Below are positions 1,343-46,760 of a stretch of 64,000 nt of DNA, piece after piece. Below the pieces are notes generated by a model that was given only the letters and a program-made list of their open reading frames with translations, made no database searches and was not told the origin of the DNA. The stretch's first letter is position 1. Every line of letters starts with the position of its first letter. Where the stretch lies: the NCBI GenBank assembly GCA_947378245.1, contig CANCJF010000001.1, forward strand, positions 2,668 to 66,667, written 5' to 3'. Source of the DNA: Bacteroidota bacterium (GTDB lineage Bacteria; Bacteroidota; Bacteroidia; Flavobacteriales_D; Crocinitomicaceae). The translations under genes were made by a program, and so were the position numbers.

Positions 1343-1460
1343 TTGACGTTTAAAATTAGATTTTTTGAGGCAAACAATAAATTAAATCCGCAGTATACAT
1401 TAGTATATGAGGAGTTTAATTTTGCAGTTGAACGAAGAAAAAGCAATTTTTAAAAGTCAA
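1343..1460 (+). repeat. Copy A (short variant) of the interspersed structured repeat family
   Basis: Shares the core TAGATTTTTTGAGGCAAACAA..ATTAAATCCGCAGTATAC..GAACGAAGAAAAAGCAATTT with 10476-10628 and 40992-41150. Its own terminal inverted repeat is TTGACGTTTAAAATT / AATTTTTAAAAGTCAA. It lacks the ~40-nt internal module. Confidence 0.8.
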
Positions 1461-2684
1461 TTAATTATACTCAAATATCCCATCCCAGATTTCATCCACT
1501 CGTTGCAAAGCCTGTTCCATCGGTAATACCGTCCAAATTGCTTTGTTTTCCTGTGCCAAACCAATGTGTTGTAATTTTGCCAATGCATCTTTCACATCAA
1601 AGTCGAGGTGACACTTAAATTCTTGCGCAAACCACGTTTCAATTTGTTGGTCGAGCACTTCAGCGCTTGTCGGCTGATTATTTTGCAACAAAAACGAATA
1701 GGCCAACATACTTTCTTTCATTTCTTCTTCTTCCGATGCATCGATTAAGGAATGAAAAACGCCTCCATTATTACCTAAATTTTTGAAATACAGAGAATCG
1801 GTCAACATCTTCTTGAAATTGTTTTTCTTGTTGATGTACCCTTTGTATTGTCTGAAAAGGTATAAACCGAGTACTCCTAAAGCGATACCACTTTGAATAA
1901 GCGTAGTCTTTAATCCTTGAAGATGGCTCAAATGACCTGCTTTGTATGCTTCACCGATCTTTATAAGAGCAGGAATTACTTTCGTAGATAAGATAGGAAC
2001 ACCACCACCAATTGCCGGAATCCAAAGCAACAATTTGTCGGTTAATGACATCTTCGGTTCGGCATTCGGAAAAATGGTTTCCAAGTCGTTTTTAGGTACG
2101 CGTTTGAAGATTTTAAGTACGATACTATTTGGATCGATATGTAGTTTTTCAGGATCTATTTTTTTCGCTTCAAAGTAAGTCGCGTCTTTGTAATGAAGGT
2201 AAATAACTACTCGATCGTAATATTCTATTTCTACTTCTTTTTTCCAGAAGATAAAACGTTTTACTTGTTCTTTCGTTTTTGTAAGTCCTCGGGCATACAA
2301 ATAATATTCGTCGTAATTATCGAAGTCGATATGAAGGTTTAGACCTACTAAATCAGAAGCATTAATCGCTTTGTGAAGCACTTCATCCTCAATCTTTTCA
2401 AAGTTCCCGCGCTCCAACACTTTTTTGAAAATGGCATGGAAACTTTTTAGGTTGCTTTTATGAGTATATAATGCGCGTTCTTTTGGTAAACGGTCTGGAT
2501 CGAAATGTGCGTAATTGTGCTTTAATTGTTGATTTAACCCAAATCCTTCGTAGTGAAAATAGTGTTCAAGTATGTGAAATAAGCGTTTGAAATTAGTAGC
2601 ATCAGTTTCGTTGGTGTAGGATTGTTCTACTTGTTTTTCCAACAAGATTTCTTTGCTAAACGGTATGTAATTTTCTTTTTTCAT
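1461..2684 (-). CDS. DUF3754 / TMEM143-like membrane protein (function unknown)
   Basis: The long ORF in the track starts at TTG 2714; the first ATG is 2684 (MKKENYIPF...). Central motif ...FKRVPKNDLETIFPNAEPKMSLTDKLLLWIPAIGGG... followed by two hydrophobic helices resembles DUF3754. Family assignment is from memory, not searched. Confidence 0.55.
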   Translation of the reverse strand: MKKENYIPFSKEILLEKQVEQSYTNETDATNFKRLFHILEHYFHYEGFGLNQQLKHNYAHFDPDRLPKERALYTHKSNLKSFHAIFKKVLERGNFEKIEDEVLHKAINASDLVGLNLHIDFDNYDEYYLYARGLTKTKEQVKRFIFWKKEVEIEYYDRVVIYLHYKDATYFEAKKIDPEKLHIDPNSIVLKIFKRVPKNDLETIFPNAEPKMSLTDKLLLWIPAIGGGVPILSTKVIPALIKIGEAYKAGHLSHLQGLKTTLIQSGIALGVLGLYLFRQYKGYINKKNNFKKMLTDSLYFKNLGNNGGVFHSLIDASEEEEMKESMLAYSFLLQNNQPTSAEVLDQQIETWFAQEFKCHLDFDVKDALAKLQHIGLAQENKAIWTVLPMEQALQRVDEIWDGIFEYN

Positions 2685-2802
2685 GAACAGTGAAAATGGA
2701 TTTTTGTGCCTCAAAGATAGTGAGAAAACACTGTTTTACGACGAATTCTAATTCAAACCCGACGAATTCTAGATTGTTCTTTTAAAATCGAAATGCTGGG
2801 TC

Positions 2803-5242: not shown

Positions 5243-7204
5243 ATGACTATGAGTAATTACAAAGCAGGTCCTTTTTTAGAACAAATTAATGTTCCAAGCG
5301 ATTTACGCAATAAGTTTGCTGTGAGTGATTTACCTCAGGTTTCAAAAGAACTTCGTCAGTACATTGTGGATGTCATTTCTGAAATTGGAAATAGTCACTT
5401 TGGCGCAAGTTTAGGGGTGGTTGAATTATCTGTTGCTTTACATTATGTGTTTAATACACCCTACGACCAATTAGTATGGGACGTTGGTCACCAAGCATAC
5501 GGACATAAAATCTTGACGGGTCGTCGTGATGTTTTTCATACGAACCGCATCAAAGGAGGGATTTCAGGTTTTCCAAAACGTAGCGAAAGTGAATACGATA
5601 CCTTTGGTGTAGGTCACTCTTCAACTTCGATTTCCGCAGCGCTTGGTATGGCGGTTGCAAATCGTTACAAAGGGGAGAAGAATAGACAACACATTGCTGT
5701 TATTGGTGATGGTGCCATGACAGCTGGTTTGGCGTTTGAAGGTATGAATCACGCTGGTTTTGAAAAAGACGCTAACTTATTGGTGGTGTTAAACGACAAT
5801 TGTATGTCGATCGACCCAAACGTTGGTGCATTGAAAGAATACCTTACTGATATTACGACTTCTCATACGTACAATAAGGTAAAAGATGAGGTGTGGAAAA
5901 TGTTGGGTAAAATTTCCAAATTTGGTCCGGATGCACAAGCGGTGGTTTCCAAAATTTCACATTCATTAAAAAGTACCTTATTAAATCAAAGTAACTTATT
6001 TGAATCGTTGCAATTCCGTTACTTTGGACCGGTGGATGGTCACGATGTGGAAGGATTAGCAAAGGTATTAGAAGATTTAAAACATATCCCAGGACCTAAA
6101 ATTTTACATTGTATTACGGTAAAAGGGAAAGGGTATAAATATTCCGAAGAGGGAGATCCAACGAAATGGCACGCTCCAGGAATCTTCAACAAAGAGACAG
6201 GAGAAATTATTAAAATTGTTCCTAAGTCTCCACAACCACCAAGATACCAAGATGTTTTTGGTCATACGATTGTGGAATTAGCGGAAAAGAACGACAAAGT
6301 GATGGGGGTAACTCCTGCGATGCCTTCGGGTTCTTCGTTAAACATCATGATGCAGGCAATGCCTGATCGTGCGTTTGACGTAGGGATTGCGGAACAACAC
6401 GCGGTGACTTTTTCTGCTGGTTTAGCTACGCAAGGATTAGTTCCTTTTTGTAATATCTACTCTTCGTTCATGCAACGAGCATACGACCAAGTGTTGCACG
6501 ATGTAGCCATTCAAAATTTGAATGTCGTATTTTGTTTAGATCGCGGTGGATTTGTAGGTGCTGATGGTGCTACACATCATGGATTGTATGACATTGCGTA
6601 TATGCGTATGATTCCTAACATGATTGTTTCTTCGCCAATGAATGAGGCTGAATTACGCGATTTGATGTATACTGCTCAACAAGAAAACATGGGTCCGTTT
6701 ACGATCCGTTATCCTCGTGGAAATGGGGTGATGTTGGAATGGAAAACACCTATGAAAGCGATTAAAGTAGGAACAGGACGTAAATTAACGGATGGTATAG
6801 ACGTAGCTTTTGTTACGGTTGGACCAGTTGGAAATTTTGCGCAAGAGGCGGTTGAAGAATTAAAAACATTAGGTATTTCTGCAGCTCATTATGACCTTCG
6901 TTTTGTGAAACCATTAGATGAGGTGATGCTTCACGAAGTGTTTACAAAGTTTGACAAAGTAATTACCGCGGAAGATGGTTGTTTGATGGGCGGTATGGGA
7001 AGTGCTGTATTAGAATTTATGGGCGACCATCACTATACGTCGAAAATTGTTCGTTTAGGTGTTCCTGATAAATACATACACCATGGAACTCCTGCTGAAT
7101 TGTATGAAGAAGCTGGTTTTGATAAAAACGCCATGGTAGAACATGCAAAACAATTAGTTGGTTACCAAAAACCATCCGACCTTTCTCAAGAAATAGCAGG
7201 TTAA
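5243..7204 (+). CDS. dxs: 1-deoxy-D-xylulose-5-phosphate synthase
   Basis: Colinear with E. coli Dxs: ...GHFGASLGVVELSVALHYVFNTPYDQLVWDVGHQAYGHKILTGRR..., GDGAMTAG TPP motif, IAEQHAVTF. The track start 5198 is TTG; ATGs at 5243 and 5249. Confidence 0.95.
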   Translation: MTMSNYKAGPFLEQINVPSDLRNKFAVSDLPQVSKELRQYIVDVISEIGNSHFGASLGVVELSVALHYVFNTPYDQLVWDVGHQAYGHKILTGRRDVFHTNRIKGGISGFPKRSESEYDTFGVGHSSTSISAALGMAVANRYKGEKNRQHIAVIGDGAMTAGLAFEGMNHAGFEKDANLLVVLNDNCMSIDPNVGALKEYLTDITTSHTYNKVKDEVWKMLGKISKFGPDAQAVVSKISHSLKSTLLNQSNLFESLQFRYFGPVDGHDVEGLAKVLEDLKHIPGPKILHCITVKGKGYKYSEEGDPTKWHAPGIFNKETGEIIKIVPKSPQPPRYQDVFGHTIVELAEKNDKVMGVTPAMPSGSSLNIMMQAMPDRAFDVGIAEQHAVTFSAGLATQGLVPFCNIYSSFMQRAYDQVLHDVAIQNLNVVFCLDRGGFVGADGATHHGLYDIAYMRMIPNMIVSSPMNEAELRDLMYTAQQENMGPFTIRYPRGNGVMLEWKTPMKAIKVGTGRKLTDGIDVAFVTVGPVGNFAQEAVEELKTLGISAAHYDLRFVKPLDEVMLHEVFTKFDKVITAEDGCLMGGMGSAVLEFMGDHHYTSKIVRLGVPDKYIHHGTPAELYEEAGFDKNAMVEHAKQLVGYQKPSDLSQEIAG

Positions 7205-7208
7205 TCCC

Positions 7209-8087
7209 TTGTTTCAGAAATATAAATATCATTTTGCCCTACATTTGATTATCTTCATTTGGGGTTTTACGGGGATACTAGGAAAGTTAATACATCTGAG
7301 TTCTGAACAAATTGTTTGGTACCGTTGTTTCATTGCATTTGTATCGATGTTGATTGCGCTTAAAATCTTTAAACTTCCGATCCGTATTCCTTTAAAAAAA
7401 TATTTTTGGGCAACGTTGGGAGTTGGGATGTTGGTTGCGATGCATTGGTGGACCTTTTACCAATCCATTTATTGGTCTACGGCTTCGTTGGGAATTTTGT
7501 GTCTTTCGACTGTAACTTTGCATGTAACGTGGTTAGAACCGGTATTGTTTGGTAAGAAGTTTTCCTTGCTCGAATTTTTCATGGGATTATTGGTGGTAAT
7601 TGGTATTTATATTGTCTCCGATGATTTCAAAGGAAATGAATTTGAAGCCTTAATTTGGGGATTAATTTCTGCTTTGTGTGCGGCGTTATTTTCTGTTTTT
7701 AATGCCCAATTGGCTCAAAAAATTCCATCGACCGCAATGTCAATTCACGAGATGGGTATTGGTTTTATTTTTCTAACGTGTGTACTATTTTTTCAAGGGA
7801 AATTAGATGCCTCAATTTTTGAAATGTCGATTTCCGATGGGTTATGGTTGTTGTTTTTAGGGATTGTATGTACCTGTGTTTCGTTTATTGTAACGATAGA
7901 AGTGATGAAGAAACTAGGTGCTTTTACGGTTTCGTTGAGCATTAATTTAGAACCGGTGTATACCATCATTTTAGCGGTTATTATTTTAAACGAACATACC
8001 TTGTTGGGGTATAAATTTTACATAGGAGCCGCGGTAATTTTGTTGGTTTTACTTGCAAATGGATTATTGAAAAGAAGGATGTCTTAA
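7209..8087 (+). CDS. EamA/DMT family transporter
   Basis: 292 aa with about 10 hydrophobic helices in two EamA-like halves. Only a TTG start is available near the N-terminus, 5 nt after the dxs stop. Confidence 0.75.
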   Translation: MFQKYKYHFALHLIIFIWGFTGILGKLIHLSSEQIVWYRCFIAFVSMLIALKIFKLPIRIPLKKYFWATLGVGMLVAMHWWTFYQSIYWSTASLGILCLSTVTLHVTWLEPVLFGKKFSLLEFFMGLLVVIGIYIVSDDFKGNEFEALIWGLISALCAALFSVFNAQLAQKIPSTAMSIHEMGIGFIFLTCVLFFQGKLDASIFEMSISDGLWLLFLGIVCTCVSFIVTIEVMKKLGAFTVSLSINLEPVYTIILAVIILNEHTLLGYKFYIGAAVILLVLLANGLLKRRMS

Positions 8088-9544: not shown

Positions 9545-9586
9545 TAATTTAATGAAGATCAATAAGCGAAGCAGTGAAACATACAT

Positions 9587-9748
9587 GTGCTTAGGAAATG
9601 TAAAGCTGGGACCCAAATCAATAAGTAAGCGTAAAAATTTCAATTGTTTGACTAGTTTACGAGGACCACGAAGTAGCACCGTAGGTAGTTTGGAAATTTT
9701 AGCGTCGTTTGATATTGGGTAGCTGCATTTCCAGCACTAGATTTTTTT
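9587..9748 (+). ncRNA. Candidate structured RNA or unusually long terminator: ~150-nt imperfect hairpin followed by a T-run
   Basis: 5' arm GTGCT.GGAAATG..AGCT...ACCCAA.TCAA pairs with 3' arm TTGA..TTGGGTAGCTGCATTTCC.AGCAC. Inner stem GCGTAAAAATTTC / GGAAATTTTAGCG. Then TAGATTTTTTTGTTTCTTTTTTT. Starts 43 nt after the radA stop. Confidence 0.3.
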
Positions 9749-9810
9749 GTTTCTTTTTTTATCAATGAAAAAAAGAAAAATACAGTCATATTTTGTAGTA
9801 TAGAATTTCA
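9741..9810 (+). repeat. Left copy (R1) of a ~70-bp direct repeat bounding the non-coding island
   Basis: TTTTTATCAATGAAAAAAAGAAAAATACAGTCATATTTTGTAGTATAGAAT aligns by eye, with a few substitutions and small indels, to 10663-10730. Confidence 0.6.
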
Positions 9811-9888
9811 TATTTATAATCTTAATTTATCGTATTAACATCATTAAGTAAAGGATCTATATTGAAAATAATCTAATAATTGCCTCCT

Positions 9889-9961
9889 CTTTGTGACAAA
9901 AAACCATCAAAATTGGGTTCGCTTTGTGTTTAAAAATCACTAAAATTGGGTTCGCTTTGTG
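9889..9961 (+). repeat. 33-bp-period tandem repeat (about 2.2 units)
   Basis: CTTTGTG recurs at 9889, 9922 and 9955. AAAATTGGGTTCGCTTTGTG is exact at 9909-9928 and 9942-9961. Confidence 0.8.
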
Positions 9962-10024
9962 CTGAAAACAGTATATATTTTTGATTTTAGTTAATGAAAA
10001 ATGAACAACTAGGTTCATTTCCCT

Positions 10025-10076
10025 AATCTCAAATACTCCCAAAAATTATCTTTATATATCCCAATTGTCTTTGCAG
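10025..10076 (+). repeat. Copy 1 of a ~52-bp direct repeat (125-bp period)
   Basis: AATCTCAAATACTCCCAAAAATTATCTTTATATATCCCAATTGTCTTTGCAG versus 10150-10201. Confidence 0.75.
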
Positions 10077-10149
10077 AATAAACTTCAAATCTGGAGCAAT
10101 GACACCTTTGGTTGTTTGGCGAAGGATGAGGTAGAGAAAGAGTTATAAT

Positions 10150-10201
10150 TAATCACAAATACTCCCAAAAATTTTCTTTATGTATACCAATCGTCTTTGA
10201 A
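10150..10201 (+). repeat. Copy 2 of the ~52-bp direct repeat
   Basis: AATCACAAATACTCCCAAAAATTTTCTTTATGTATACCAATCGTCTTTGAAG; most positions identical to 10025-10076. Confidence 0.75.
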
Positions 10202-10385
10202 GGATGAATAATTTACTGAATTAAAAACTATTTGTAAATAAGCGTATTGAGGTGTTTCGGGTAATTTGCTAATCGCATAATATTATAATTTATTGTGGTT
10301 TTTCTATAAAAATTTTTCTCTCTCAAAAATCACCAAAAATGATTGACAACGTGTTTTGATGTGAAAATATGCAACACAAACAAGT

Positions 10386-10419
10386 TTGTCAATCAAAAAT
10401 GGTTAAAAATGATTGACAA
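10386..10419. promoter_or_regulatory. Operator-like perfect inverted repeat TTGTCAATCA-N14-TGATTGACAA (a third direct copy at 10340-10349)
   Basis: 10-bp arms are exact reverse complements. AAAAATGATTGACAA is repeated exactly at 10335-10349 and 10405-10419. Confidence 0.35.
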
Positions 10420-10475
10420 AATAAACGTATCTCACAAAACAGTATTGTTTTTTACGATTACAAGTTGATTTATAT

Positions 10476-10628
10476 GGGAGTTCTAAAAATTAGATTTTTT
10501 GAGGCAAACAAAAAATTAAATCCGCAGTTTACTTAAGTAAAAGAGAAAGCACTGCTTTCGAAGACCAAACGATAGTGCAGGGAAATATATAACAGTTGAA
10601 CGAAGAAAAAGCAATTTTTAGAACTCCC
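10476..10628 (+). repeat. Copy B (full-length) of the interspersed structured repeat family
   Basis: Perfect 16-nt terminal inverted repeat GGGAGTTCTAAAAATT / AATTTTTAGAACTCCC flanked by TATA-like sequence. Conserved core plus a ~40-nt module GAGAAAGCACTGCTTTCGAAGACCAAACGATAGTGCAGGGAA. Confidence 0.85.
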
Positions 10629-10662
10629 TATAACACATTTCGCAGTAAAAAGTTACCATGCG

Positions 10663-10730
10663 TATTTTTTGTATGCTTTTTATCAATACGAAAAGAAAAA
10701 TAAAGTCGTATTTTCGTAGTAAAGAATATC
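10663..10730 (+). repeat. Right copy (R2) of the ~70-bp direct repeat, immediately upstream of the lipoprotein gene
   Basis: TTTTTATCAATACGAAAAGAAAAATAAAGTCGTATTTTCGTAGTAAAGAAT aligns to 9741-9810. Confidence 0.6.
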
Positions 10731-15730: not shown

Positions 15731-16602
15731 TATAACGTGTTCAAGACTTGTTCTTTAATCTTTTCCAGCGCATCTTTCATATCAACCACAATTTTTTGTA
15801 ATTCTACGTGGTAACTTTTACTTCCCAAGGTGTTGATTTCTCTTCCTAATTCTTGCGTAATGAATCCAAGTTTTTTTCCTGCGGCTGGAAGTACCATCGT
15901 TTCTAAAAAGTAATCCAAATGATTTGCCAAACGCATCTTTTCTTCCGAAACATCTAATTTCTCGATGTAGAAAATCAACTCCTGTTGAAAGCGATTTTCA
16001 TCGTATCCAGCTACAGCACCCGCTTCTTCTAAGCCTTTGCGCATACGTTCTTTGATGATGTCAATACGCACAGATTCGTAGATGTCCACTTGTTTTAATA
16101 ACGAACGAATGTCTTCAATACGCTCTGTAAATTCTTTTTCTAAAGCCTGTCCTTCTTGACGACGGAACGTATTGAAATTCATACAAGCCTCTGCAACGAT
16201 AGTATGTAACAAAGTAAATTCTTCTTCACTAATCGTTGTATCTTTTGTTTGGGTATAAATATCAGGCATACGCATCAACAAAGCTAAGTAGTCAGAACTC
16301 GATTCTCCGATGAGTGCATTTGTTTCTTTTAAATCTTGGTAATAGGCCAGTGCCAATTCTTTGTTGATTTCAACAGATTTTGATGCACCAATACTTTCTA
16401 CTTGAATGTTTAATTCTACTTTACCACGATCCAGCGCATTGGTTATATACTGACGAATTTCTAGTTCTTTTTCTCTATATGGACTCGCAATACGTGTATA
16501 TAAATCCATACTTTTACTGTTCAACGATTTGATTTCAACGCTGATTTTTTTATCTTCAAAGGAACCGGTAGCCTTACCATATCCTGTCATTGAATGTAAC
16601 AT
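15730..16602 (-). CDS. yicC: YicC family stress-induced protein
   Basis: MLHSMTGYGKA N-terminus and C-terminal ...ELGREINTLGSKS... motif typical of YicC/DUF1732. Confidence 0.88.
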   Translation of the reverse strand: MLHSMTGYGKATGSFEDKKISVEIKSLNSKSMDLYTRIASPYREKELEIRQYITNALDRGKVELNIQVESIGASKSVEINKELALAYYQDLKETNALIGESSSDYLALLMRMPDIYTQTKDTTISEEEFTLLHTIVAEACMNFNTFRRQEGQALEKEFTERIEDIRSLLKQVDIYESVRIDIIKERMRKGLEEAGAVAGYDENRFQQELIFYIEKLDVSEEKMRLANHLDYFLETMVLPAAGKKLGFITQELGREINTLGSKSYHVELQKIVVDMKDALEKIKEQVLNTL

Positions 16603-16753
16603 AAATTCTATTATTTGAGAGTAAATTTACCATAAAGAATAACTTTTTGATTGCATCTTTACAACTATTTTTATGTGAACTTGTTTTTCAAGCATACGAC
16701 TTCCTACATATTTCGTAATTTAGTAGCATAATCTGAATATTTAAAACACAGAA

Positions 16754-17704
16754 ATGAAAGTTATTGATCACTTAAAAGAAGCTAAATCAACCCTTTTTTC
16801 ATTTGAAATTTTACCTCCATTAAAAGGGAAAAGTATCCAATCTATCTACGATGGAATTGATCCATTAATGGAATTTAAACCTAAATATATCAATGTTACT
16901 TACCACCGCGAAGAGTATATTTTCAAGGAAAGAGATAACGGATTATTGGAAAAAATAGCGATTCGCAAGCGCCCAGGTACTGTAGGTATCTGTGCTGCAA
17001 TCATGAATAAATACCATGTGGATGCTGTGCCTCACTTAATTTGTGGAGGATTTAGTAAGGAGGAAACGGAAAATGCATTGATTGATTTACAATTTTTAGG
17101 AATTGATAATGTATTAGCGCTGCGAGGAGATTCTATCAAAACAGAAAGCACATTTAAACCACATCCATCCGGACATGCGTATGCGGTAGATTTGATTAAA
17201 CAAGTGGTTGAAATGAATACGGGAAATTATATCACGGAAGATTTTCAGTTGGAGCCAACAAGCTACTGTATTGGAACCGCTGGTTATCCTGAAAAACATT
17301 TTGAAGCTATGAATCTGAATACAGATTTACAATATTTGAAAGCTAAAGTGGATGCTGGTGCTGAATACGTTGTGACTCAAATGTTTTTTGATAATCAAAA
17401 ATACTTTGACTTTGTAGATGCATGTCGTGCTATTGGTATTACTGTTCCTATTATTCCAGGAATTAAGCCTATCAAAACTTTGAATCACACTACTTTTTTA
17501 CCAAAATTATTCCACATTGATTATCCTGAAGCATTAGCGAAAGAATTGTTGAAATGTAAGGATAATCAAGCTGTGAAAGAATTAGGAATAGAGTGGGGGA
17601 TACAACAATCAAAAGAATTAAAGGCACATAATGTTCCAGGTATTCACTATTATACAATGTCTAATTCGGATGAGGTAAAAGCAATCGCTTCTGAGGTATT
17701 TTAA
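16754..17704 (+). CDS. metF: Methylenetetrahydrofolate reductase
   Basis: ...FSFEILPPLKG...NVTYHRE...HLICGG...NVLALRGD...GYPEKH...AGAEYVVTQMFFDN..., 316 aa. Confidence 0.92.
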   Translation: MKVIDHLKEAKSTLFSFEILPPLKGKSIQSIYDGIDPLMEFKPKYINVTYHREEYIFKERDNGLLEKIAIRKRPGTVGICAAIMNKYHVDAVPHLICGGFSKEETENALIDLQFLGIDNVLALRGDSIKTESTFKPHPSGHAYAVDLIKQVVEMNTGNYITEDFQLEPTSYCIGTAGYPEKHFEAMNLNTDLQYLKAKVDAGAEYVVTQMFFDNQKYFDFVDACRAIGITVPIIPGIKPIKTLNHTTFLPKLFHIDYPEALAKELLKCKDNQAVKELGIEWGIQQSKELKAHNVPGIHYYTMSNSDEVKAIASEVF

Positions 17705-17712
17705 TTAAAATT

Positions 17713-18252
17713 ATGCGTAATTATTTTATAATGTGTTTACTATTAATAGTAAGCACCCTCACGTTTTCTCAAAAGAAACACATTCAATTGACCAATGGTT
17801 TATTAGTTGCACAATTGGATCGACCAGAAGAGAAATTTACCTTGGAAATAAATTTGGCTGAATTATTTTCAGCTGAAAATGTAAAGGTGGTACCGTCATT
17901 AAATCTTCTTAAACAAGGAGAGGTTGCTTCTGTTTTGGTTTCGGATTCTGTCACTAACATTCTAAAATCCAAAAATATTGATACCTATATTTTGGTATCA
18001 GTACGTGGTTTTGACAAGAATTTTAGACTTTCTTCTCATTTTGAACCTTTATCTAATGAACTAGCATCTAGTCATTTATTTCCGCTATTTAGGGATGACA
18101 TACTATCTGTGACTTTTGAGTTTACATTGTACAGAAACAACGAAGTAGTAGCAAATGAATTACTTCGTATAAAAAATGTAGATTCAAAGGATAAGGTGAT
18201 GAAGAAATTACGCAAGAAATTACCAAAGTTGATTTCCAAATGGAAAAAATGA
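17713..18252 (+). CDS. Hypothetical exported protein
   Basis: Signal peptide MRNYFIMCLLLIVSTLTFSQ and a basic C-terminus. No family recognised. Confidence 0.5.
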   Translation: MRNYFIMCLLLIVSTLTFSQKKHIQLTNGLLVAQLDRPEEKFTLEINLAELFSAENVKVVPSLNLLKQGEVASVLVSDSVTNILKSKNIDTYILVSVRGFDKNFRLSSHFEPLSNELASSHLFPLFRDDILSVTFEFTLYRNNEVVANELLRIKNVDSKDKVMKKLRKKLPKLISKWKK

Positions 18253-18255
18253 ATT

Positions 18256-18293
18256 ATTCTGTAGAGACAAAATGCGTTTCGTCTCTACAGAAT
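18256..18293. terminator. Bidirectional hairpin terminator (13-bp perfect stem) between convergent genes
   Basis: ATTCTGTAGAGAC-N12-GTCTCTACAGAAT. It is followed by degenerate partial copies (GTTGCATCCCTA, GTTGCTTCTCTACA) up to the sprA stop. Confidence 0.65.
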
Positions 18294-18341
18294 ACGTTGC
18301 ATCCCTATTAAATGTGTTGCTTCTCTACAAATAATATCACA

Positions 18342-21300
18342 CTACATTCCCGCTAAATTCAATCTTAATTTTAACCCTGCACTTGTGTTTGAAGTGGGAT
18401 AAGATGTCGCTACTTTTGGTCGATTGATTACCTGATCATAGTACATCATCAACGTTAAGTTAGGACCTAGATTATAATCCATAGAGGATTTAATTGAAAT
18501 AACCATTTGTCCTGCTGTTGCTTGGTTGGTGTTTTCTACTATTTTACGGATGACTGTAAAATTGTCTCTAAATGAGAAATCAAAACGGATATTTAAATCA
18601 TTTTCAGGAATTTTACCTTGTATTTTGAATGGGAATTTTACCTTAGAAAATTTCACACCTGAACCAACTACCCACTCCTTACTTAATATTTCAGTAATTT
18701 GTTGATTACTCAATGCTAGCGAGGAATTTCGGTCTTTCTTGTATTCTAATTTGGTAATGAGCCCTTGTCCTAAGAAATTCCAAGTTGCATCAATACCAAA
18801 CAATGGTGAAAAACGTTCGGTTAATGCCACGTTTTGAATTTGTCTTTCAGCAATAAAGTTGTTATTTAAATCAAAAGTGGAAGGATTTCCATAAGCATCC
18901 ACATTCGCCTTTAAGTTTGTTTGTATTCCAGAAATACTTACACTTGAAGAATATGCATGGCGTAATGTAATGTTCTTCGTACGTTTTTTAAAGAATTCCA
19001 TTTTGGAGAATCCATTGTAATTGATAGACCAGTTAGGTAAAGGAATGGCTGAAATCGGATTGATATTCCTTGTGGTCATTTTATTATTCGTATAGGATGC
19101 TAAAAATGAACCTACTAATACCTCTTGTTGCGTGGATCCATACCCTTTTGCATATCCGCTTGTAGTTGGTATAGAATTTGGATTTTTGGCACCAAGTAAT
19201 TGACTTACAATTTCTCGGTTATCACGCATGGTAGTAAATGAAGTGGATTGATAATCACTACTTGTTGACATGAATGTGGAACGCAAAGCAATTGTTGAAT
19301 AGGTTAACGTACCAGTTTCAACTAAACTCTGATTTTGGTAACTTTTTGTAGTATCACTCCATCGGAAAAAATCACTAGAATTCATCGTGTAATTTCGGTT
19401 AAATGATAATTCTATACTTACATCTTTTAATGGTTCAATCGTCATTCTCCCTGAAATATTTTGGGAATGGGTTAAGGTATGCTGTTTATTAAGTGATTGA
19501 TTTTTTACCAACCAGCCATTATCTGCAGCAGTTCGCGCAAAATCATAGGAAGTCTTTTGTCCGTATAAATCATAAGTTTGTTGCCCAAACAAGAATCCAG
19601 TAAGATCTTTTGGTGTAGAGGCAGGTAACCCTAAATATCTTGTTTCTAAATTATATCCGGGAAGTAATGTTCCGTCATTTAAAGAGTAGGTACCAGAAAC
19701 AGATCGAACACTCATTGCAGCACGACCAATCGTTGACACAACAATGTTGACAGGTTCCTTTTCGCGTTTTGCTTTTCTTGCCTCCCGCTTTTCTTTACGT
19801 AAAATTCGTCTTCTAATACGATCTTCTTTTCTTTTCTCTTTTCGGGTAAGTTGATCATAAGGCTTACCAAATGAAGTCACTTTTGAATCAAATTTTGTTG
19901 GTTTTTTTTCGGATTGATCAGTTGTTGAACCTACCTGAGCTCTATTTGATGTTTTATTTCCATCTATGATTTTCTTTAAATAGGGAACTTTAGAATAGAA
20001 GTTCGTCATGTTTAAGGTAGTTGTAAGATTAACTACTCGACTATTTTGTATTGTATTTCCATAAGCACTTTGTCCTAGAGGTGCTCGTTGCCAGTTAAAT
20101 GTTCCACTATATTTTGTAGAGGCAGTTACAAAATCTAATAATGGTATCTTTTCGAACGGTAAATTATACGATAATGAATAATCGTGCGTATAATCCATTG
20201 TTTTACCTAACGTACTTAATTGACGTTTAATCGTGTCTAAGAAAATTTGATAACCTACAGGATCTTCTTTTTTATTTACCCGACCATTCGATTCATCAAA
20301 AATAGCCCTATCAGTAGCATTAAACGTAAACTTTAAGTTTTTTGTAATATCATAACCAAGCATATATGATCTATTCCATGCAAATGATTTTACATAAACA
20401 GGTGTGAATTCATAGGTTGGAGCGAGGTTGTTACGCATCTTACGTTCGTTATAATTACGTAAAATATCGTTATTTATAGAAATTGTCTTAGGTGTTAAAT
20501 ATAAATTTGCATCTTTTAGAATATTCCACCATTTAGATTTCTGCATAAACTTAACCTTCTTGAATGGTTCAATCGGTTTAGCGGTAAAACTATAACTGTA
20601 CGTTAAAGCGCTTTTCCAAGACTGTGTTCTATCAAATTCTGTATTGAAATCTCGTTTATAAATCTCACTATATCCGTAACTTGCCGATAAATTTGAAATA
20701 TTCCAAAAATGAGCTTTTGCATCCGGATTCGCTTCTTTACGAACATTGGTAAAGTTGTACGATTTTCTTTCTGTAAAATCTTGTCCATTCTTTGCACGTT
20801 GGTTTTTTTCGGATAAAGAATAGTCGTTTAACTTTATATCAGGATTAAAAGGATCGTATTCAGGATTGATAATTCCTAAATTATACCCATAGAAAAAGGG
20901 CAATGAAATTTTCATTTTATTTCCTAAGAACTGTCCTAATTGCATGGTGGTGTTGAAGTCAAAACCAATTTGTTCATTTCGTTGACGTTCTTGCACACGA
21001 CTTTCGATGGTACCCCAATTTACTCCTGCGTAATTACCAGATACGGAAACATTTGCGAAATCTGCAGCTTGTACTTGCATACGCCCTACTGCAGCCGAAC
21101 CTCCATTATTTTGAAAGTCAGTTAGTCGTAATTCATTGATCCAGATATTACCACATTTAGGTAGCCCATCATCTTTCCATAGTTTATTGTTATCAATAGA
21201 AGGATTTCGTACACCAATCATGATTGTCTTAATTCCTTGTAAATTAGGACTTCCTTTAACCTTTATATACCGACTCGGATTAGCAGGATCTACCATTACA

Positions 21301-24300
21301 TACTCACTCGTGTTTGTGATTGTAGAACTAGGATTTGCTGTAATGTCATTTCTTTTTTTCTTAACCAATAATAAATTGTCAAAGTCAATTTCCATATTAT
21401 TTGCATCTGGCCAAATTTCGTTTGGAGATGTTGTATTCCAATTGGTTGTTGACATTGGCATTTCATATTCATAATAATTGTCTGTAAAATCAGATCCCAC
21501 TCGGATAAATAGAGTTAAATCATTCGTATTTAATGGACTCGATTTTGTAATTTCTTCCGCATGAACATACATCTTTAACTTCTTGTATGTTCGAACATCA
21601 AATTGTACATTTTTGTATGCTGCCCTTGCAGAACCATCTTTCAAATTACACACTTCAAAAGCTAAGGCTTGCTCATTCATTTGACGTTGTTGAATTTGAG
21701 AAGGATCAATTTCACGTAATATGCCAGGAGGAATTACATAATTAATCGGTGTACGAGATGCGTTTTCTTCTATGTTTACCGCAGAAATATTGAACGTTGT
21801 TAAGTTTGGATCTGTTTGAAATGACTCTCCAGGTACATTTATATCACCTTGATATTTTCTCCATTCTCCACGTATAAATTCTAATCGTGCAAAACGAACC
21901 AAAACTTCTTCATTAAAGTTTTTTAAAAACATCCGCATAAATCGGATAGATCGAAAATCGGATATTCCATTTACAACTTTTTGAGGCTCACGAATTGGAA
22001 CTTTAAATTGGATCCATCGCTCTGTTTTAGTCCCATTTTGATAGGTTTGTATGTTGGTCACGTTATTTTTCCCAATCTCTAAATCTTTAGAGCGTAAACT
22101 CACTTTGTATTGGTAATAACTTTCTGATTCTGATAAATTGTTGTCTTGATTTAGATCTTCGATGTCTGGTAAATTTGTTGCCTGAGTCGAATATCCTGCA
22201 GCATTGTATTTCGCTGACATTTCCAATGATGGTGAGTTTCCTTGATGCCTATTAAAACGTTTGTAACGTTCAAGAATGTCTGCTTTTTCACTATCGTAAG
22301 TGTCGCTTCTGTAATAAGAATAATCATCATTTGATGGATCAGACATCATTTTATCTTTCACACTAGGATCTAAAATTGGATTATTCTTCACCCAATTAAC
22401 ATACGTAGCAAATTGAGATTTTTCAGCATCATTATTCCAACCATCCAATCCAATATCTTGATTTTCCAAAGCTGTAGGACTAGGATCAAAAGCATTTATA
22501 ACTACATTTTGGGTGGATACTCGTGCCCACTGTGTGACATCTAAATTATCTGAAGTTGTCGTTGGAGTAGGAGGTAAACCATTTTCAAATTCTTTACGTG
22601 AATCAGGCAATACATCTTCCGAAATGTTTCCTAAATTAAAGTACAAATCTCCACCTGATGGTACAACATTCTGATTCGCTTTTACTGCATCTTCATTAAA
22701 TGGATCTAATATCCAAAACTGAATAAATTCAATGTTTGATAACTCAAAATCATTCGTACTTAATGAACGCATTATTCCTCCCCATTTTGAAGAAGGATTT
22801 TGAAAGTGACCTAACTTGTCGAGCATCGAAGTAGTGTCATAATTGTACATACCTCGTTCTTTCGGATAAAATGCTAATTCTAAAATCGGAATGTTTGTAA
22901 ATGTTCCATATTGTTGTTGAAGATTTGGAAAAATATCTTTTTGACTAACCATTCTCATCCTACTATCTGTAAGCATTTGAGGATTGTCAATGATATGTTT
23001 TGGCGTATTTGTTCCTGCCTGATAAAATAAAGGGTCAATTAGATACCATGCAATATTTGCTCGTTTAAATCCTGAACTTAAATTTTTAGTTCCTGCTTCT
23101 GGAAATAAATCAGGTTGATTTTGAGGAATAGACGCTAATTTCCAAGCACTTTGAGTTCGTAAATCAATGGTGCTTTGACTTCCTTCAAAATCATCTACAT
23201 AGGAGATACCTGTAGATGTAATTGCTTTTGGTGAGCCAGGAAACAAATGAGCTACTTCTCCTGTAAAGGAAATAGTTGATTTAGCACGCGTAGAAAGCAT
23301 AGGTAAAAGATCTATAGCTTTCGTTAAAAATGGTAATTCATGTTTGAATGATACATCTAAACCTAACATGTTGTTTTTAAATGGTTCTGAACCAATATCT
23401 ACCTTTTGTGTAATTGGTCGTTCAGTCATTCGCATCCAAGTAGCGCCTAAATTAAAATCCTTATTAAAACGGTAGTTTAAATGCGTTCCTATCATTGATC
23501 GGGCCTGAAACCCAAATACAGAATTACTTTCTACAGACACCTTAATCGGGGTGTTTGATTCTAGGACACCTGAATTTAATATTTTAACACGACCTAGGTT
23601 GTAGTCGACCGTGTAGTCTGTTCCCTCTACTAATTTTATTCCTCCTGCTGTAACTGAAACCGCACCTTGGGGAACGTTTAATGCGTTTAGAGGAATGTCA
23701 GAACTTACAGAGGATTGATATTGACCTTTAAAAATAAATCGATTTTTAGTAGGAATTTGTTGTGCCGCTGTTTTTGTAGAGTCATATAGTTCCGTAAAGA
23801 CAATCTTATCTACAGTACTAACCGGAATTCCCTTAGCAATCATTTTTTGACGTAGAGTCTGGCCAAATGGTTCGATGGTAGAAAAATAAATACGCCCATT
23901 TTTGGGGTTAATTGTTCCTCCATTATCCGCTTTATTTCCGTTAAAATTAACTGGTGCAAAATCAAATAAACCATCCGAGAAAGGTTGGTTATTCACATTC
24001 AGCTTATCCATTCCTAACAAGGAAATTAACTGAACCTTATCTAATCCCTCATATGGGAAAAAATTGACCGGTAAACTTGTCGTTGGGTTATTGTATAATA
24101 CGTCTAATCTAAATCCTTGTCGATCTAGAGAATATGCACCAATTGAATACACGTTTTTCATCATCAAATCCCAAATTTTATTTTTAGGATTGGTTAATGT
24201 TGGTTTTAATAATTTTAAATATAAAGCAGATTTTCCATCTATTCCATCCGTAGAAAATTGTCCAACTTGGTATGTTTTTCCTTGATAGGTATATTCATAG

Positions 24301-40976: not shown

Positions 40977-40991
40977 ATATATATTGTTTAA

Positions 40992-41150
40992 TGTGATTTT
41001 TAAATTAGATTTTTCGAGGCAAACAAAAAATTAATACCGCAGTATACTTTAGTATATGAGGAGAGAAAGCTTGCTTTCGAAGACCAAACGTTAGTGCAGG
41101 GAATCAAAAGGATTTTATAAAAAAGAAGAAAAAGCAATTTAAAAATTATA
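40992..41150 (+). repeat. Copy C (full-length) of the interspersed structured repeat family
   Basis: Conserved core TAGATTTTTCGAGGCAAACAAAAAATTAATACCGCAGTATAC... plus the ~40-nt module. Terminal inverted repeat ATTTTTAAATT / AATTTAAAAAT, extendable by G.U-compatible pairs. Abuts the ppiD stop codon. Confidence 0.85.
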
Positions 41151-43343
41151 TTATCTTCTTATCCCTAAGAATGCGAACTTACGATTATCCTTAACATCCG
41201 CCAATTTAATCAATGCCATTTTCGCTTCCCCTTGTTGGTTCCCACGAACACTGTTTAATAATTGCATAGCTTCCATTGTATAATCACTAGTTGTTGGTGC
41301 TTTAATTGTTTTGTTGATTTGAATTACATAAACACCTTGTTCTCCTTTTACAAGTACAGTAGAACCATCTTTTAAACCAGCAAATAATGTTCCTACAGCT
41401 TCAGGTTCGAATCCTTGCAATTGAGGATTCGCAAAAGTTACTTCTCCTTTGTTTACAATTGTTTTTCCTTTTTTAGCAAGAACATTTAAGTTCTTTTGTT
41501 TTCCTATTTGCTTAACAAAACGATCACCTTTCTTTTGTTTGATGACTTCTAATTTCATAGATTCTTGAACATCTATGAAAGCAGGAACACCTTTTTCCCT
41601 TACTGAAGATACGATTGCAATAATATATCTGTTACCATCAATGATTGGTTTTGAACATAAAGTTCCTACTTCCGTATTTTCGTCATAGGCTAATTTCAAT
41701 ATTGCATCCTCAGCCAATGTAGTTGTGAATCCTTGAGCAGAAGGATTTTCATCAAGTATTCTTACTGGACGAGCAAAATACCCTTTTTGTTGTGCAATTG
41801 TATCAAATAAATCCAACTTTGCTTTTGGAGAATTTTTTCTGTAAATTTTTTCGTCTAATTCATTTAAAACATCAAATGCGTCATCTGTTGCTTTCATTTT
41901 TGTATCATTACTTGGAAGTAATTCTTTTTCAATGAATGAAACAATAGGATATTTTACCGATTTACGATCCATTACTTCAATGATGTGAATCCCGAAATCT
42001 GTAGTTACCATTCCGATAGTACCAATTGGTTTTTCAACTGCAAATTTAGAGAATTGAGGAACCATTTCGTAATCGAGGAAGTTTTCATATACACCACCCG
42101 TACTTTTAGATCCAGGATCTTCACTGTATTTATTTACATATTCAGTAAAGTTGTCTTTGTTGATTTTCAAAATTAAAGTATCTGCCATTTTACGAACAGC
42201 ACGTAATTTTAAAGAATCTCCTTTTGGTGCGCTTAATAAGATGTGTCTAACTTTGCAAACATTGTTATTGAAACCTCTTACTTTCGCAATACGGAATTTT
42301 CCATTGTCAACATAAGGTCCAACAAGTTGTCCTGCAGAAGCCATCTTAAATACTGTATCCATTTTTAATGGGAAAGTTAATCCTTGTTGAGCTTTAGCAT
42401 CACCTTCAGGACGTAAAGTAGATTGACGAGTACTCGTGTAGAATTTTAAGTCGCTATTTGACAACACAAACGTAGAATCATCTTTTGTTTTAGAGAAACC
42501 ATCTTTGATAGTTTTCAATATTTTATTAAATTCTGTTGTATCTTTTTTAGATGGAGCGATATTTATATCAAAATATTTTACATCTCTGCCTGCAGTAGAT
42601 TCGTATTTTTTCTCATTTTTATGCTCTTCATAGTATGATTTTACTTCATCCTCAGATACTTTGATTTGATCATCAGGAATTTCAGAGTAACGACGTATTA
42701 CATAAGAAATATTTTTAACTTCTTTTTGTGCTTTATACTCTTCTTTACCTTCTAATTTAGTTACATAAACACCTTGAGAAAGAATTTGGTAGTATTTTTC
42801 GTTTTTACGTTGGTTTGTAAAACTTGTTTTTGTTGTTTCCCAATCTGCTTGTACTTTAGGATCTGTTGAACTTTCCATATCTTGGATACGTTTTTCTAAC
42901 ATACGTGGGTTAAATTGACCAGTAACTGAATCAACAAAACTTTGTGCTAAATTTGGCATTACAGTAAAACCATCAGTACCGTATAAATAAGCATCAAATT
43001 CATTTTTACTTACATCGATTCCTAATTTTTCGTATTCTTCTTCTAAGATTTTCTCTTCCACCAACATGGTCCATGCACGATTTTCAGACTGTTTTTTATC
43101 TGTCTCTGTATAAGGACGTTGTTGTTGTGCATATTGCTGTTGATCTGATTGAATCATCGATTGAACCAATTTTTCATATTCCATTGGATCCACTTTCTCA
43201 CCGTAAACCTCCCCTAAACCAATAGGTTGATTTGAAGAACCAAACATATTGTCCCATCCACTCATGATGAATGCGAACATTGCCAATCCTAATAAAACGA
43301 TAGTAATCCCTGATTTTTCACGTATTTTTCCAATAATAGCCAT
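41151..43343 (-). CDS. ppiD: Periplasmic chaperone / peptidyl-prolyl isomerase PpiD-like
   Basis: N-terminal anchor MAIIGKIREKSGITIVLLGLAMFAFI, SurA-N-like region and a central parvulin-like segment (...VRHILL...DPGSKSTGG...FGIHIIEV...); 730 aa. Confidence 0.8.
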   Translation of the reverse strand: MAIIGKIREKSGITIVLLGLAMFAFIMSGWDNMFGSSNQPIGLGEVYGEKVDPMEYEKLVQSMIQSDQQQYAQQQRPYTETDKKQSENRAWTMLVEEKILEEEYEKLGIDVSKNEFDAYLYGTDGFTVMPNLAQSFVDSVTGQFNPRMLEKRIQDMESSTDPKVQADWETTKTSFTNQRKNEKYYQILSQGVYVTKLEGKEEYKAQKEVKNISYVIRRYSEIPDDQIKVSEDEVKSYYEEHKNEKKYESTAGRDVKYFDINIAPSKKDTTEFNKILKTIKDGFSKTKDDSTFVLSNSDLKFYTSTRQSTLRPEGDAKAQQGLTFPLKMDTVFKMASAGQLVGPYVDNGKFRIAKVRGFNNNVCKVRHILLSAPKGDSLKLRAVRKMADTLILKINKDNFTEYVNKYSEDPGSKSTGGVYENFLDYEMVPQFSKFAVEKPIGTIGMVTTDFGIHIIEVMDRKSVKYPIVSFIEKELLPSNDTKMKATDDAFDVLNELDEKIYRKNSPKAKLDLFDTIAQQKGYFARPVRILDENPSAQGFTTTLAEDAILKLAYDENTEVGTLCSKPIIDGNRYIIAIVSSVREKGVPAFIDVQESMKLEVIKQKKGDRFVKQIGKQKNLNVLAKKGKTIVNKGEVTFANPQLQGFEPEAVGTLFAGLKDGSTVLVKGEQGVYVIQINKTIKAPTTSDYTMEAMQLLNSVRGNQQGEAKMALIKLADVKDNRKFAFLGIRR

Positions 43344-45975: not shown

Positions 45976-46760
45976 TGTCAGTTAAAGCTAAAAAGCATTT
46001 AGGTCAACATTTCTTGATCGATAAAAATGTAAGTAAACGTATTGCTCAACAATTCGGCGGATTTAATGATTGCCGTAAAGTGTTGGAAATTGGACCTGGA
46101 ATGGGGGCGTTAACAGTCTTTCTTTTAGAAGAAGAAAAAAATGATTTATGGGCTATGGATGTCGATAGAGATTCAATAGCCTATCTTCATGAACATTTCC
46201 CTCAATTAAAGGATAAAATTTTTGAAGCAGACTTTTTAAAAGCTAACCTTGCCTCGTTTTTTGGAGATCAACCATTCGCTGTAGTTGGTAACTTTCCATA
46301 TAATATTTCTTCTCAAATTTTATTTCGTTGTTTAGAATATCGAAATCAGATTCCTGAAATTATGGGAATGTTTCAAAAAGAAGTTGCAGAACGTATAGCT
46401 GTAAAACCTGGAACTAAGACCTATGGCATCATTAGTGTTTTATTACAAACCTTTTATGATATCACGTATTGTTTTACGGTGGACGAGCATGTATTTAATC
46501 CTCCTCCAAAAGTAAAATCAGGTGTGATTCGGTTGACTAGAAATAACAGAGATAAACTACCTTGTGATGAAAAGTTTTTTATTCAAGTAGTTAAAGCATG
46601 TTTCAATCAACGAAGAAAAATGATACGAAATTCAGTTAAACCATTTTTATTAGGAAATGTGGTAGAGCATCGATTTTTAGAAACACGACCTGAAAGGTTA
46701 TCCGTAGATGATTTTATCGAATTGACGTTGTTGTTGGAAGGATTAAAACCGGTGGAATAA
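45975..46760 (+). CDS. rsmA: 16S rRNA (adenine1518/1519-N6)-dimethyltransferase
   Basis: ...KKHLGQHFL.D.N..., SAM motif VLEIGPGMGALT, ...VVGNFPYNISS.... ATG overlaps the upstream stop (TAATG). Confidence 0.93.
   Translation: MSVKAKKHLGQHFLIDKNVSKRIAQQFGGFNDCRKVLEIGPGMGALTVFLLEEEKNDLWAMDVDRDSIAYLHEHFPQLKDKIFEADFLKANLASFFGDQPFAVVGNFPYNISSQILFRCLEYRNQIPEIMGMFQKEVAERIAVKPGTKTYGIISVLLQTFYDITYCFTVDEHVFNPPPKVKSGVIRLTRNNRDKLPCDEKFFIQVVKACFNQRRKMIRNSVKPFLLGNVVEHRFLETRPERLSVDDFIELTLLLEGLKPVE

Follow-up and report, generated by a model that had tools for sequence, protein, structure and literature searches.

Small mobile elements of Bacteroidota whose conserved interior appears to be selected for folding of the plus strand

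What kind of element produces three short, similar, non-coding repeats that are each closed by inverted ends of a different sequence? The repeats (copies A, B, and C) lie within 64,000 nucleotides of contig CANCJF010000001.1, from a member of the Crocinitomicaceae (assembly GCA_947378245.1); we will call this whole stretch the window. The original prediction described the repeats as either a novel structured RNA or an unusual MITE (a miniature transposable element with inverted repeats). Both halves of that description turned out to have merit: the element has a plus-strand fold that appears to be selected and that matches nothing in Rfam, and its terminal inverted repeats and target-site duplications show that it is mobile, while the RNA form itself is something that we infer. 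On balance, we favor the view that the three repeats are members of a Bacteroidota-wide family of small non-autonomous mobile elements, whose folded plus strand would be read by a protein and which would be moved in trans.

Each element is predicted to fold into a rod. Its parts, in order, are P1 (a variable closing stem), P2, Y-RAGGC, the 5' strand of P3, CC-GCAG, P4, UGA-GG-A, the 3' strand of P3, AACGMA-G, and the return strands of P2 and P1. P3 has 15–17 bp, and P4 is a 5–6-bp hairpin with a free 4-nt loop. The rod includes two asymmetric internal loops that are nearly unchanged across the family: loop J (RAGGC opposite AACGMA) and loop L (CC-GCAG opposite UGA-GG). The copies in the window and their parts are as follows, with scores from the covariance model that is described below.

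1343–1460, plus strand: copy A, the short (canonical) form, about 118–120 nt; covariance model match at 1357–1446 (88.7 bits, E = 1e-22)
1343–1357, plus strand: 5' strand of P1 of copy A (terminal inverted repeat); its partner is 1445–1460, with one mismatch and one bulge (from the sequence and the fold)
1359–1366, plus strand: 5' strand of P2 of copy A; its partner is 1437–1444 (from the alignment to the covariance model)
1367–1371, plus strand: 5' side of loop J of copy A, GAGGC, opposite AACGAA at 1431–1436
1388–1412, plus strand: loop L and apical hairpin of copy A, as CC-GCAG, P4 (UAUAC-AUUA-GUAUA), and UGA-GG
10476–10628, plus strand: copy B, the copy that was originally flagged; long form, 153 nt, with a damaged core (only 28.2 bits)
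10476–10491, plus strand: 5' strand of P1 of copy B, GGGAGTTCTAAAAATT, which pairs at 16 of 16 positions with 10613–10628 (AATTTTTAGAACTCCC)
10543–10590, plus strand: long-form module of copy B, a hairpin (GAAAGC-N3-GCUUUC) and then GAAGACCAAACGAUAGUGCAGGGAA; common to copy C and to loci L006 and L015
40991–41151, plus strand: copy C, long form, 161 nt (46.2 bits)
40991–41006, plus strand: 5' strand of P1 of copy C, AUGUGAUUUUUAAAUU; its partner is 41136–41151, including two G-U pairs (read from the sequence)

Most of what had been read from the three copies stands. All three are where they had been placed, on the plus strand, and they share a 22-nt core, TTAGATTTTTYGAGGCAAACAA, which occurs three times in the window (0.01 occurrences are expected, allowing up to 3 mismatches). 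GAAGAAAAAGCAATTT is likewise present in all three copies. The closing stem of copy B is perfect, as claimed, and the stem of copy C (11/11) does grow to 16 bp by way of two G-U pairs that are valid on the plus strand only. The ends of copy A are complementary too, although the mismatch and the bulge in this stem had gone unmentioned. The apical hairpin (TATAC/GTATA in A and C, TTTAC/GTAAA in B) is a compensated pair, and the helix TTTTTT:GAAAAA of A and B becomes TTTTTC:GAAAAA in copy C, both as first described. The original prediction missed that B and C are long forms. A 32-nt stretch is common to B and C and missing from A; when B and C are aligned with two further copies, the long form has a 45-nt extra module directly after UGAGGAG. 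It also missed that copy B, as compared to the other long forms, has lost the conserved UGAGG. When we scanned the window with the covariance model (with filters off), we found no other copies. The next-best match scored 16.6 bits (E = 0.06) and lies at 46575–46624; P2 and the two sides of loop J are there, whereas P3 and P4 are not. It may be a chance match or a stump.

How widespread is the family? Collecting more copies had been proposed along with the original prediction, and a 27-nt core pattern found 19 loci in seven freshwater metagenome-assembled genomes (MAGs), with one genome scanned per species. The seven MAGs are labelled as Flavobacteriia or Crocinitomicaceae, and two of them bear species names that are evidently wrong. 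Using another anchor, the apical region CCGCAGTNTACNNNNGTANATGAG, we scanned metagenome contigs and found at least 120 loci. AGGC and AACG.AG are conserved in these metagenome copies even though they lie outside of the anchor that was used to retrieve them. Across the loci that we fetched, the covariance model had 146 matches with E < 1e-3. Contigs of a single metagenome assembly carry at least 10 copies. The G+C content of the copies ranges from 0.28 to about 0.6, and the metagenome loci that we read indicate that a broad family shares a single architecture and that the window type is one of its branches. One locus is in a Bacteroidaceae genome (at least one such contig), which gives the family a range of at least Flavobacteriales and Bacteroidales.

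The family's range may be wider still: one contig (L126) has genes that look unlike those of Flavobacteriales, and it carries two diverged copies in opposite orientation, about 0.85 kb apart (6715–6799 and 7652–7740; one has a G+C content of 0.58). Some loci hold several units. At L039 (6503–6730), two head-to-tail copies are 137 nt apart. At L094 (1–841), there is a tandem array with a period of 162 nt and at least 3.6 copies. It consists of units of about 80 nt that come in two kinds; both resemble the 5' half of the element, and the array closes with one complete element and a G+C-rich terminator. In viral contigs from IMG/VR, a 19-nt core pattern had five matches and a 24-nt anchor had one; all were dismissed as chance, as the covariance model found nothing there or the anchor stood alone inside an open reading frame (ORF). 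BLASTN searches of plasmids (with representatives of two subfamilies) and of phages (with one of these two) gave no meaningful match.

Is the fold selected? In a hand-checked alignment of 31 diverse members, 88.3% of the cells are paired, as compared to 32–44% if the 3' partners are slid by 1–3 columns, and the covariation score is 0.496 instead of 0.083–0.143. This alignment has 195 doubly changed cells, versus 68 ± 6 in column shuffles, and none of 500 shuffles reached 195. We built the covariance model from this alignment. Among 98 distinct sequences that matched the model, 88.8% of cells are paired (at most 47% if slid), the covariation score is 0.439 (at most 0.130 if slid), and double changes occur in 24 of 30 pairs; for P2, they occur in all eight pairs. 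Because the 98 sequences were fitted to the model, their alignment leans towards the structure, but the hand alignment agrees with it. The middle pair of P4 covaries among U-A, A-U, and G-C. The covariation of P2–P4 is strong in both sets. Among rare variants within subfamilies, we found about nine compensated double changes versus 47 single mismatches. Also, the R of RAGGC and the M of AACGMA change together (G with A, and A with C; by eye), which suggests that they may form a non-canonical contact.

The wobble pairs indicate which strand folds. The paired cells of the core include 232 G-U pairs (135 outside of one invariant pair) but only 26 A-C pairs. Transitions in duplex DNA should yield equal numbers of the two, so it is the plus strand, as a single strand, that is kept paired. 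Judging from these patterns of substitution, the interior is under selection to keep the plus strand base-paired.

We also considered that this might be an ordinary selfish MITE: a long imperfect inverted repeat that is derived from an insertion sequence (IS) and acts as double-stranded DNA, with covariation that arises because the arms descend together or because the palindrome is corrected from a template. Several observations would fit, including the terminal inverted repeats and target duplications, the presence or absence of copies among relatives and their decay, the lack of a promoter peak, and the weaker wobble bias of the P1/P2 region (85 G-U versus 50 A-C). However, a double-stranded element should not have the excess of G-U over A-C in its core, with or without the invariant pair. 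Furthermore, the loops are asymmetric (neither is an inverted copy of the other) and stay invariant in subfamilies with unrelated ends, and orthologous copies are far more conserved than the flanking DNA, which is mostly coding. We therefore consider an ordinary MITE to be unlikely as the full explanation.

If the interior is conserved, why do the ends differ? P1, together with P2, forms inverted ends of 16–25 bp, which are constant within a subfamily and unrelated between subfamilies (an example of paired termini is AAGACCGTTGCAAAA...TTTTGCAACGGTCTT). The GGGAGTTCTAAAAATT end of copy B recurs at six or more unrelated loci, including L001/L016, L006, L015, and L018; the closing stems of copies A and C did not turn up elsewhere. 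Three subfamilies whose termini are unrelated all have a canonical unit of 121 nt, the long form is 153–164 nt, and units overall are 118–164 nt, with no conserved ORF inside. The similarity between copies of a subfamily starts exactly at these ends, and short direct repeats lie just outside. In a neutral scan, flanking repeats of at least 4 bp were found for 18 of 78 elements, versus 4.4 expected. In the AAGACC...GGTCTT subfamily (121 nt), there are 22 exact 5-bp duplications, versus 0.73 in permuted data (maximum 3), and in the GGGGAC...GTCCCC subfamily (121 nt), there are 24 exact 4-bp duplications, versus 2.8 (maximum 8); both strands were counted, so the number of loci is about half as large. 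A third subfamily has an extra 20-nt copy of its left end and is flanked by TAATTA or TATTTA (about 6 bp), with the same variant on both sides of each copy. These results show that the element inserts at AT-rich sites near the ends of genes and duplicates 4–6 bp of its target, and comparisons of close relatives (below) show that units are gained and lost. In other words, the element is mobile. It is small, multicopy, and non-coding, it is bounded by terminal inverted repeats, and it makes target-site duplications, so by definition it is a MITE.

These results change how the closing stems should be read. It had been claimed that complementary, copy-specific ends show that structure is conserved instead of sequence. 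This argument does not hold for P1, which is constant within each subfamily, which is complementary because it is a terminal inverted repeat, and whose wobble bias is weak. The closing stems are the ends of a transposon; what does speak for a selected fold is P2–P4, together with the two invariant asymmetric loops.

The original prediction offered another explanation for copy-specific stems, which is that the conserved core inserts into palindromes that are already present at the target, such as the stems of terminators. Copies A and C do have closing stems that are unique to their loci, and alleles without the element in L145/L146 and L150 keep a sequence that resembles the left stem. But identical stems are found at many unrelated loci, each with a different duplicated target. 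Also, the stretch that is retained in L145 includes TTAGATT, which is from the interior of the element, so a remnant of a deletion is more likely; and the real terminator beside copy C has an intact, canonical hairpin. This explanation seems extremely improbable, and we set it aside.

Some insertions and variants show what the element can disrupt or accommodate. At L036 (110–407), it interrupts the aptamer of a cobalamin riboswitch with an insert of 134 nt, and the aptamer still exceeds Rfam's threshold. At L100 (207–399), it occupies the 23S–5S rRNA spacer, on the sense strand of the rRNA. The GTGTCTGG subfamily (L021, L043, L082, L105, L131, and L134) is a 143-nt variant with an extra hairpin, CCUGUCCCGUUCUAAACGGGAG, inside the AAGGC loop, and L011, L028, L033, and L042 have other inserts at or near the UGAGGA position. 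The AAGGC loop and the UGAGGA position appear to be sites that tolerate expansion.

Unrelated ends on a unit with a constant length of 121 nt, together with strand-specific pairing, might also be expected if the element were a hairpin site in single-stranded DNA, in the manner of attC, REP/REPIN-RAYT, or IS200/IS605. A structure-specific recombinase or an HUH-type enzyme would bind the loops and cut at a fixed distance, so that the sequence of the ends would be irrelevant. In our own tally from the coordinates of the covariance model matches, 11 of 13 adjacent pairs on the same contig share an orientation, as such a site might produce. However, these known single-stranded systems make no target duplication, while our element has duplications of 4–6 bp; no HUH or tyrosine recombinase gene is present among the window ORFs that were scanned, and none recurs near the copies; and orientation has no consistent relationship to GC skew in the window. 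(The skew changes from positive to negative at 16000–24000, with A and B on one arm and C on the other, so we dropped the idea of a replication-strand rule for orientation.) We think that a single-stranded DNA site is quite unlikely.

Relatives of the window's genome show that its own copies are recent or unstable. Copy A lies between the stop codon of a DUF3754 gene (1461–2714, minus strand) and a yefM-yoeB module. The relatives L150–L152 lack copy A and have either neither the module nor the element or the module without the element. (The YefM-YoeB toxin-antitoxin pair, at 765–1276, adjoins copy A; in the two relatives without the pair and the element, the DUF3754 gene abuts ilvA.) Copy C lies between the stop codon of ppiD and the terminator of ppiD, and its last base overlaps the stop codon (41151–41153, minus strand). 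Relatives whose PpiD is 93%, 88%, or 68% identical lack copy C and have 55–79 nt at the site instead; in L148 (PpiD 85% identical), the orthologous copy is present and is internally deleted. The 93% alleles retain TTTTTTAAAATTAGATT, which resembles a remnant of the left end, and the missing part is bracketed by a 10-nt imperfect direct repeat (AAATTAGATT / AAATTATATT), so we read these "empty" alleles as deletions instead of virgin sites. Copy B makes up the final 153 nt of a non-coding stretch of about 1.13 kb, and relatives with RadA proteins that are 94–98% identical lack the entire stretch. Thus, we obtained no clean virgin sites for the window copies: the alleles for A and C look like remnants of deletions, and for B the whole 1.1-kb region is missing. 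As for target duplications, the flanks of copy B are a near-duplication (TATAT and TATAA, 4/5 identical), and A and C have none. Examining insertion sites for empty-site palindromes and target duplications had been proposed as a check; there are exact duplications in the young subfamilies and, among the window copies, only the near-duplication of B.

The non-coding region that ends with copy B (9545–10672) lies between radA and the gene for a 178-amino-acid lipoprotein and is unusual in its own right. It includes a 59-nt direct repeat (at 10024 and 10150), three instances of AAAAATCACNAAAATTG, and a palindrome, TGTCAATCA...TGATTGACA, at 10387–10418. At its boundaries, some 55 nt from the downstream promoter region are duplicated (9756–9810 and 10677–10730).

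Are resident copies maintained? Orthologous copies from different MAG species are 94–100% identical, while their 200-nt flanks, which are mostly coding, are 74–96% identical. For instance, in one orthologous pair, the element is 95.9% identical and the flanks are 76% and 82% identical. By eye, the 4-nt apical loop accounts for about half of the small number of differences between L004 and L007. So, between species, copies that share a locus diverge at a rate several times lower than that of the flanks, which shows that some resident copies are under purifying selection while others decay. The closing stems that are specific to a locus are conserved among orthologous copies as well, which argues against homogenization by gene conversion from a master copy.

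The resident copies have preferred locations. For 81 elements, we compared the orientation of the flanking genes to that of the element: both genes are antisense in 35 cases, both are sense in 22 cases, the genes are convergent in 19 cases, and they are divergent in 5 cases. As just 5 of the 81 are between divergent genes, promoter-containing spacers are avoided. The 3' end of the element is usually a few nucleotides from the next gene, often from the stop codon of a convergent gene, while its 5' end is 50–100 nt from its neighbor.

We then looked for genes that might be partners of the element. When we clustered the ORFs within 3 kb of 143 elements, no protein family was recurrent (the maximum was 8 of the 143 loci). 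Between the paired copies of L126 and L061, the ORFs are ordinary genes. Across about 1 Mb of loci that we fetched, there were neither solitary ends that flank a gene nor split half-elements, either of which would hint at a parent IS. The original prediction stated that the window has no transposase, integrase, or RAYT gene; this holds for the 50 ORFs that were scanned against Pfam and for RadA, PpiD, and UvrC (a 2447-amino-acid ORF was left out), and in these we also found no reverse transcriptase or HUH protein. The window does encode RNase III, at 49111–49833.

Does the core correspond to a known RNA? The original prediction could not match it to any RNA family, and neither could we: no family in Rfam 15 reached its gathering threshold over the elements in the window or at 17 diverse loci. 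Around copy B, matches with E up to 10 were only noise. The families without a match include ribozymes, FopS, Flavo-1, 6S, SRP, and Y RNA. In the full-text literature, searches for the core sequences found only primers, and a survey of MITEs and motif papers from the Breaker lab had nothing that matches the element. We also rejected two other readings. In the small ORF that begins with AUGAGGAG, neither the frame nor the stop codon is conserved, and copy B lacks the AUG (by eye). And on inspection, the registers of loops J and L do not fit a K-turn, a loop E, or a UAA/GAN motif.

Alternatively, the elements might be free-standing genes for trans-acting small RNAs (sRNAs), each with its own promoter and terminator, that were multiplied by duplication as for FopS or Qrr. 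This could explain the conserved structure, the strand-specific wobble bias, the purifying selection on orthologous copies, and the presence of several copies per genome. But TAnnTTTG, a promoter motif of Bacteroidota (the -7 box), is not enriched upstream of the elements, and subfamily similarity begins exactly at the target duplication. (In the search for promoter motifs, an internal TAATTTTG was found only in the window-type subfamily.) Also, the target duplications indicate transposition, and every variable segment is paired, which leaves no single-stranded seed. The multicopy sRNAs FopS and GibS of Bacteroides have a single-stranded 5' seed and a terminator, and their authors state that they were deposited in Rfam (PMC11697453). 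That architecture differs from the rod of our element, and, as mentioned above, nothing in Rfam matches. Overall, an sRNA gene is an improbable explanation.

The element has about 25 invariant unpaired nucleotides set among helices that vary and covary, and it has many copies per genome. This is a typical ribozyme pattern and could also point to a small catalytic or otherwise active RNA, such as a self-cleaving ribozyme, aboard a mobile element; repeats often contain hammerhead and twister ribozymes. However, no ribozyme family from Rfam matches, even at E up to 10, and the loops are separated by a continuous helix of 15–17 bp in an unbranched rod, which would probably leave little scope for tertiary docking. 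We consider a ribozyme to be very improbable.

Instead, we propose that a trans-acting protein that is conserved in these bacteria recognizes the folded plus strand by its two invariant loops, and that a transposase supplied in trans moves the DNA by its terminal repeats. Most likely, from the layout of the element, the folded strand would be an RNA hairpin in read-through transcripts, where its effect on the host message would be in cis, through 3'-end formation, processing, or stabilization. The main alternative is that the folded molecule would be a single-stranded DNA form that is read by the mobilizing enzyme. We favor an RNA hairpin because of the arrangement of A tract, rod, and U tract and because the stem would form about 24 bp of double-stranded RNA. 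In most subfamilies, a run of A precedes the rod and a run of U follows it, and in P1/P2, A:T outnumbers T:A by 452 to 273. An intrinsic terminator would have a short G+C-rich stem directly before its U run; here, AU-rich sequence forms the stem beside the U run, and the A and U runs are swapped in some subfamilies.

Several observations weigh against our proposal. None of the three window copies has a perfect target duplication, and the nearest relatives' "empty" alleles for A and C keep a stretch that resembles the left strand of P1, so that these alleles may be deletions rather than virgin sites. Several copies are decaying (B lacks UGAGG, and the copy in L148 has an internal deletion), so not all of them are maintained. 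Different ends and different duplication lengths fit poorly with a single ordinary transposase: duplications of 4, 5, and 6 bp with unrelated termini would require several transposases or else an enzyme that is blind to the sequence of the ends. We found neither an autonomous element with matching ends nor a binding protein. Finally, in 54 of 81 cases, the closest gene downstream is convergent, so that its mRNA would contain the complementary strand, the one that pairs less well, and there is no peak of TAnnTTTG upstream of the elements that would suggest a promoter of their own.

A more radical possibility is that this is a new class of structured nucleic acid, whose loops are read by a protein that is conserved across Bacteroidota and whose ends are set by their position on the helix and not by their sequence. 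This would be either structure-guided transposition of a kind not yet described in bacteria or a mobile functional RNA. Ends that are defined by position would fit, because the unit has a constant length of 121 nt with unrelated termini and duplications of 4–6 bp. Nevertheless, we view a new class as unlikely.

If the fold is functional, then a widespread and highly conserved structured element of Bacteroidota is absent from the RNA catalogs (we searched Rfam 15), and it would sit at the ends of many housekeeping genes along with a partner that reads its loops. The element reverses the usual pattern for MITEs, as its interior is conserved and its ends vary freely. It is thus well suited to a broader question, which is whether hairpin repeats like ERIC and REP survive as parasites, as domesticated RNA signals, or in both roles. 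In practical terms, copies of the element break up riboswitches and rRNA spacers and might be misread as sRNAs or terminators; annotators can use the covariance model to mask or label them.

Among known systems, the element is closest in its behavior to the ERIC, Correia, and REPIN repeats, and it appears to belong to none of them. It is not like the attC sites of integrons, which have R''/L''...L'/R' boxes (GTTRRRY) and mark the boundaries of cassettes in arrays beside intI; its copies are dispersed singly among housekeeping genes and its conserved bases are in the interior instead of at the ends. Nor does it resemble IS200/IS605-type ends or PATEs, which have subterminal hairpins and neither terminal inverted repeats nor target duplications, with TnpA/TnpB close by in autonomous copies; it has inverted ends and target duplications and lacks any match to IS605-orfB in Rfam. 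Classical IS-derived MITEs are similar in being small, non-coding, multicopy, and polymorphic between relatives, with terminal inverted repeats and target duplications. But in classical MITEs the ends are kept and the interior drifts, while our element keeps its interior across orders, varies in its ends and in the length of its duplications, and has no parent IS that we could find.

Like REPINs, the element is a dispersed repeat that forms a hairpin. REPINs consist of two short inverted REPs with a GTAG motif, make no target duplication, and are accompanied by a RAYT gene. In the REP/REPIN-RAYT system, the folded single strand of the repeat is the form that is recognized, a single-copy enzyme mobilizes the repeats in trans, and the repeats are inherited vertically and conserved over the long term. 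In contrast, our element has a single asymmetric core and makes duplications, and there is no RAYT or HUH (Y1) protein among the window ORFs that were scanned. The Correia elements of Neisseria (CREE/NEMIS) are MITEs of 100–160 bp that lie near genes and have no transposase of their own; they have short and long forms, and in mRNA, the stem formed by their terminal inverted repeats is a substrate of RNase III. Our element is similar in its size, its stem of inverted repeats, its short and long forms, and its location beside genes. Correia elements have constant 26-bp ends, a TA duplication, and an interior with an IHF site and promoter-like boxes. In our element, the ends vary by subfamily and the interior is a covarying rod with invariant loops.

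Finally, the ERIC/IRU repeats of Enterobacteriaceae and Vibrionaceae are reportedly imperfect palindromes of about 120–127 bp that are intergenic and lie at the ends of genes. They are said to be multicopy and to encode no protein, to have an interior that is more conserved across genera than their surroundings are, and to have longer variants that arise by insertions at fixed internal sites. When transcribed, they reportedly form a long RNA hairpin and have effects that depend on their orientation. Our element is unlike ERIC/IRU in that it is from another phylum and has no apparent sequence relationship to them, has ends that are specific to a subfamily, and makes 4–6-bp duplications; the invariant asymmetric internal loops and the strand-specific G-U bias that we document here also set it apart. 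The likeness is one of behavior only, and it extends to the length, the palindrome, the location at gene ends, the conserved interior, and the fixed sites of expansion.

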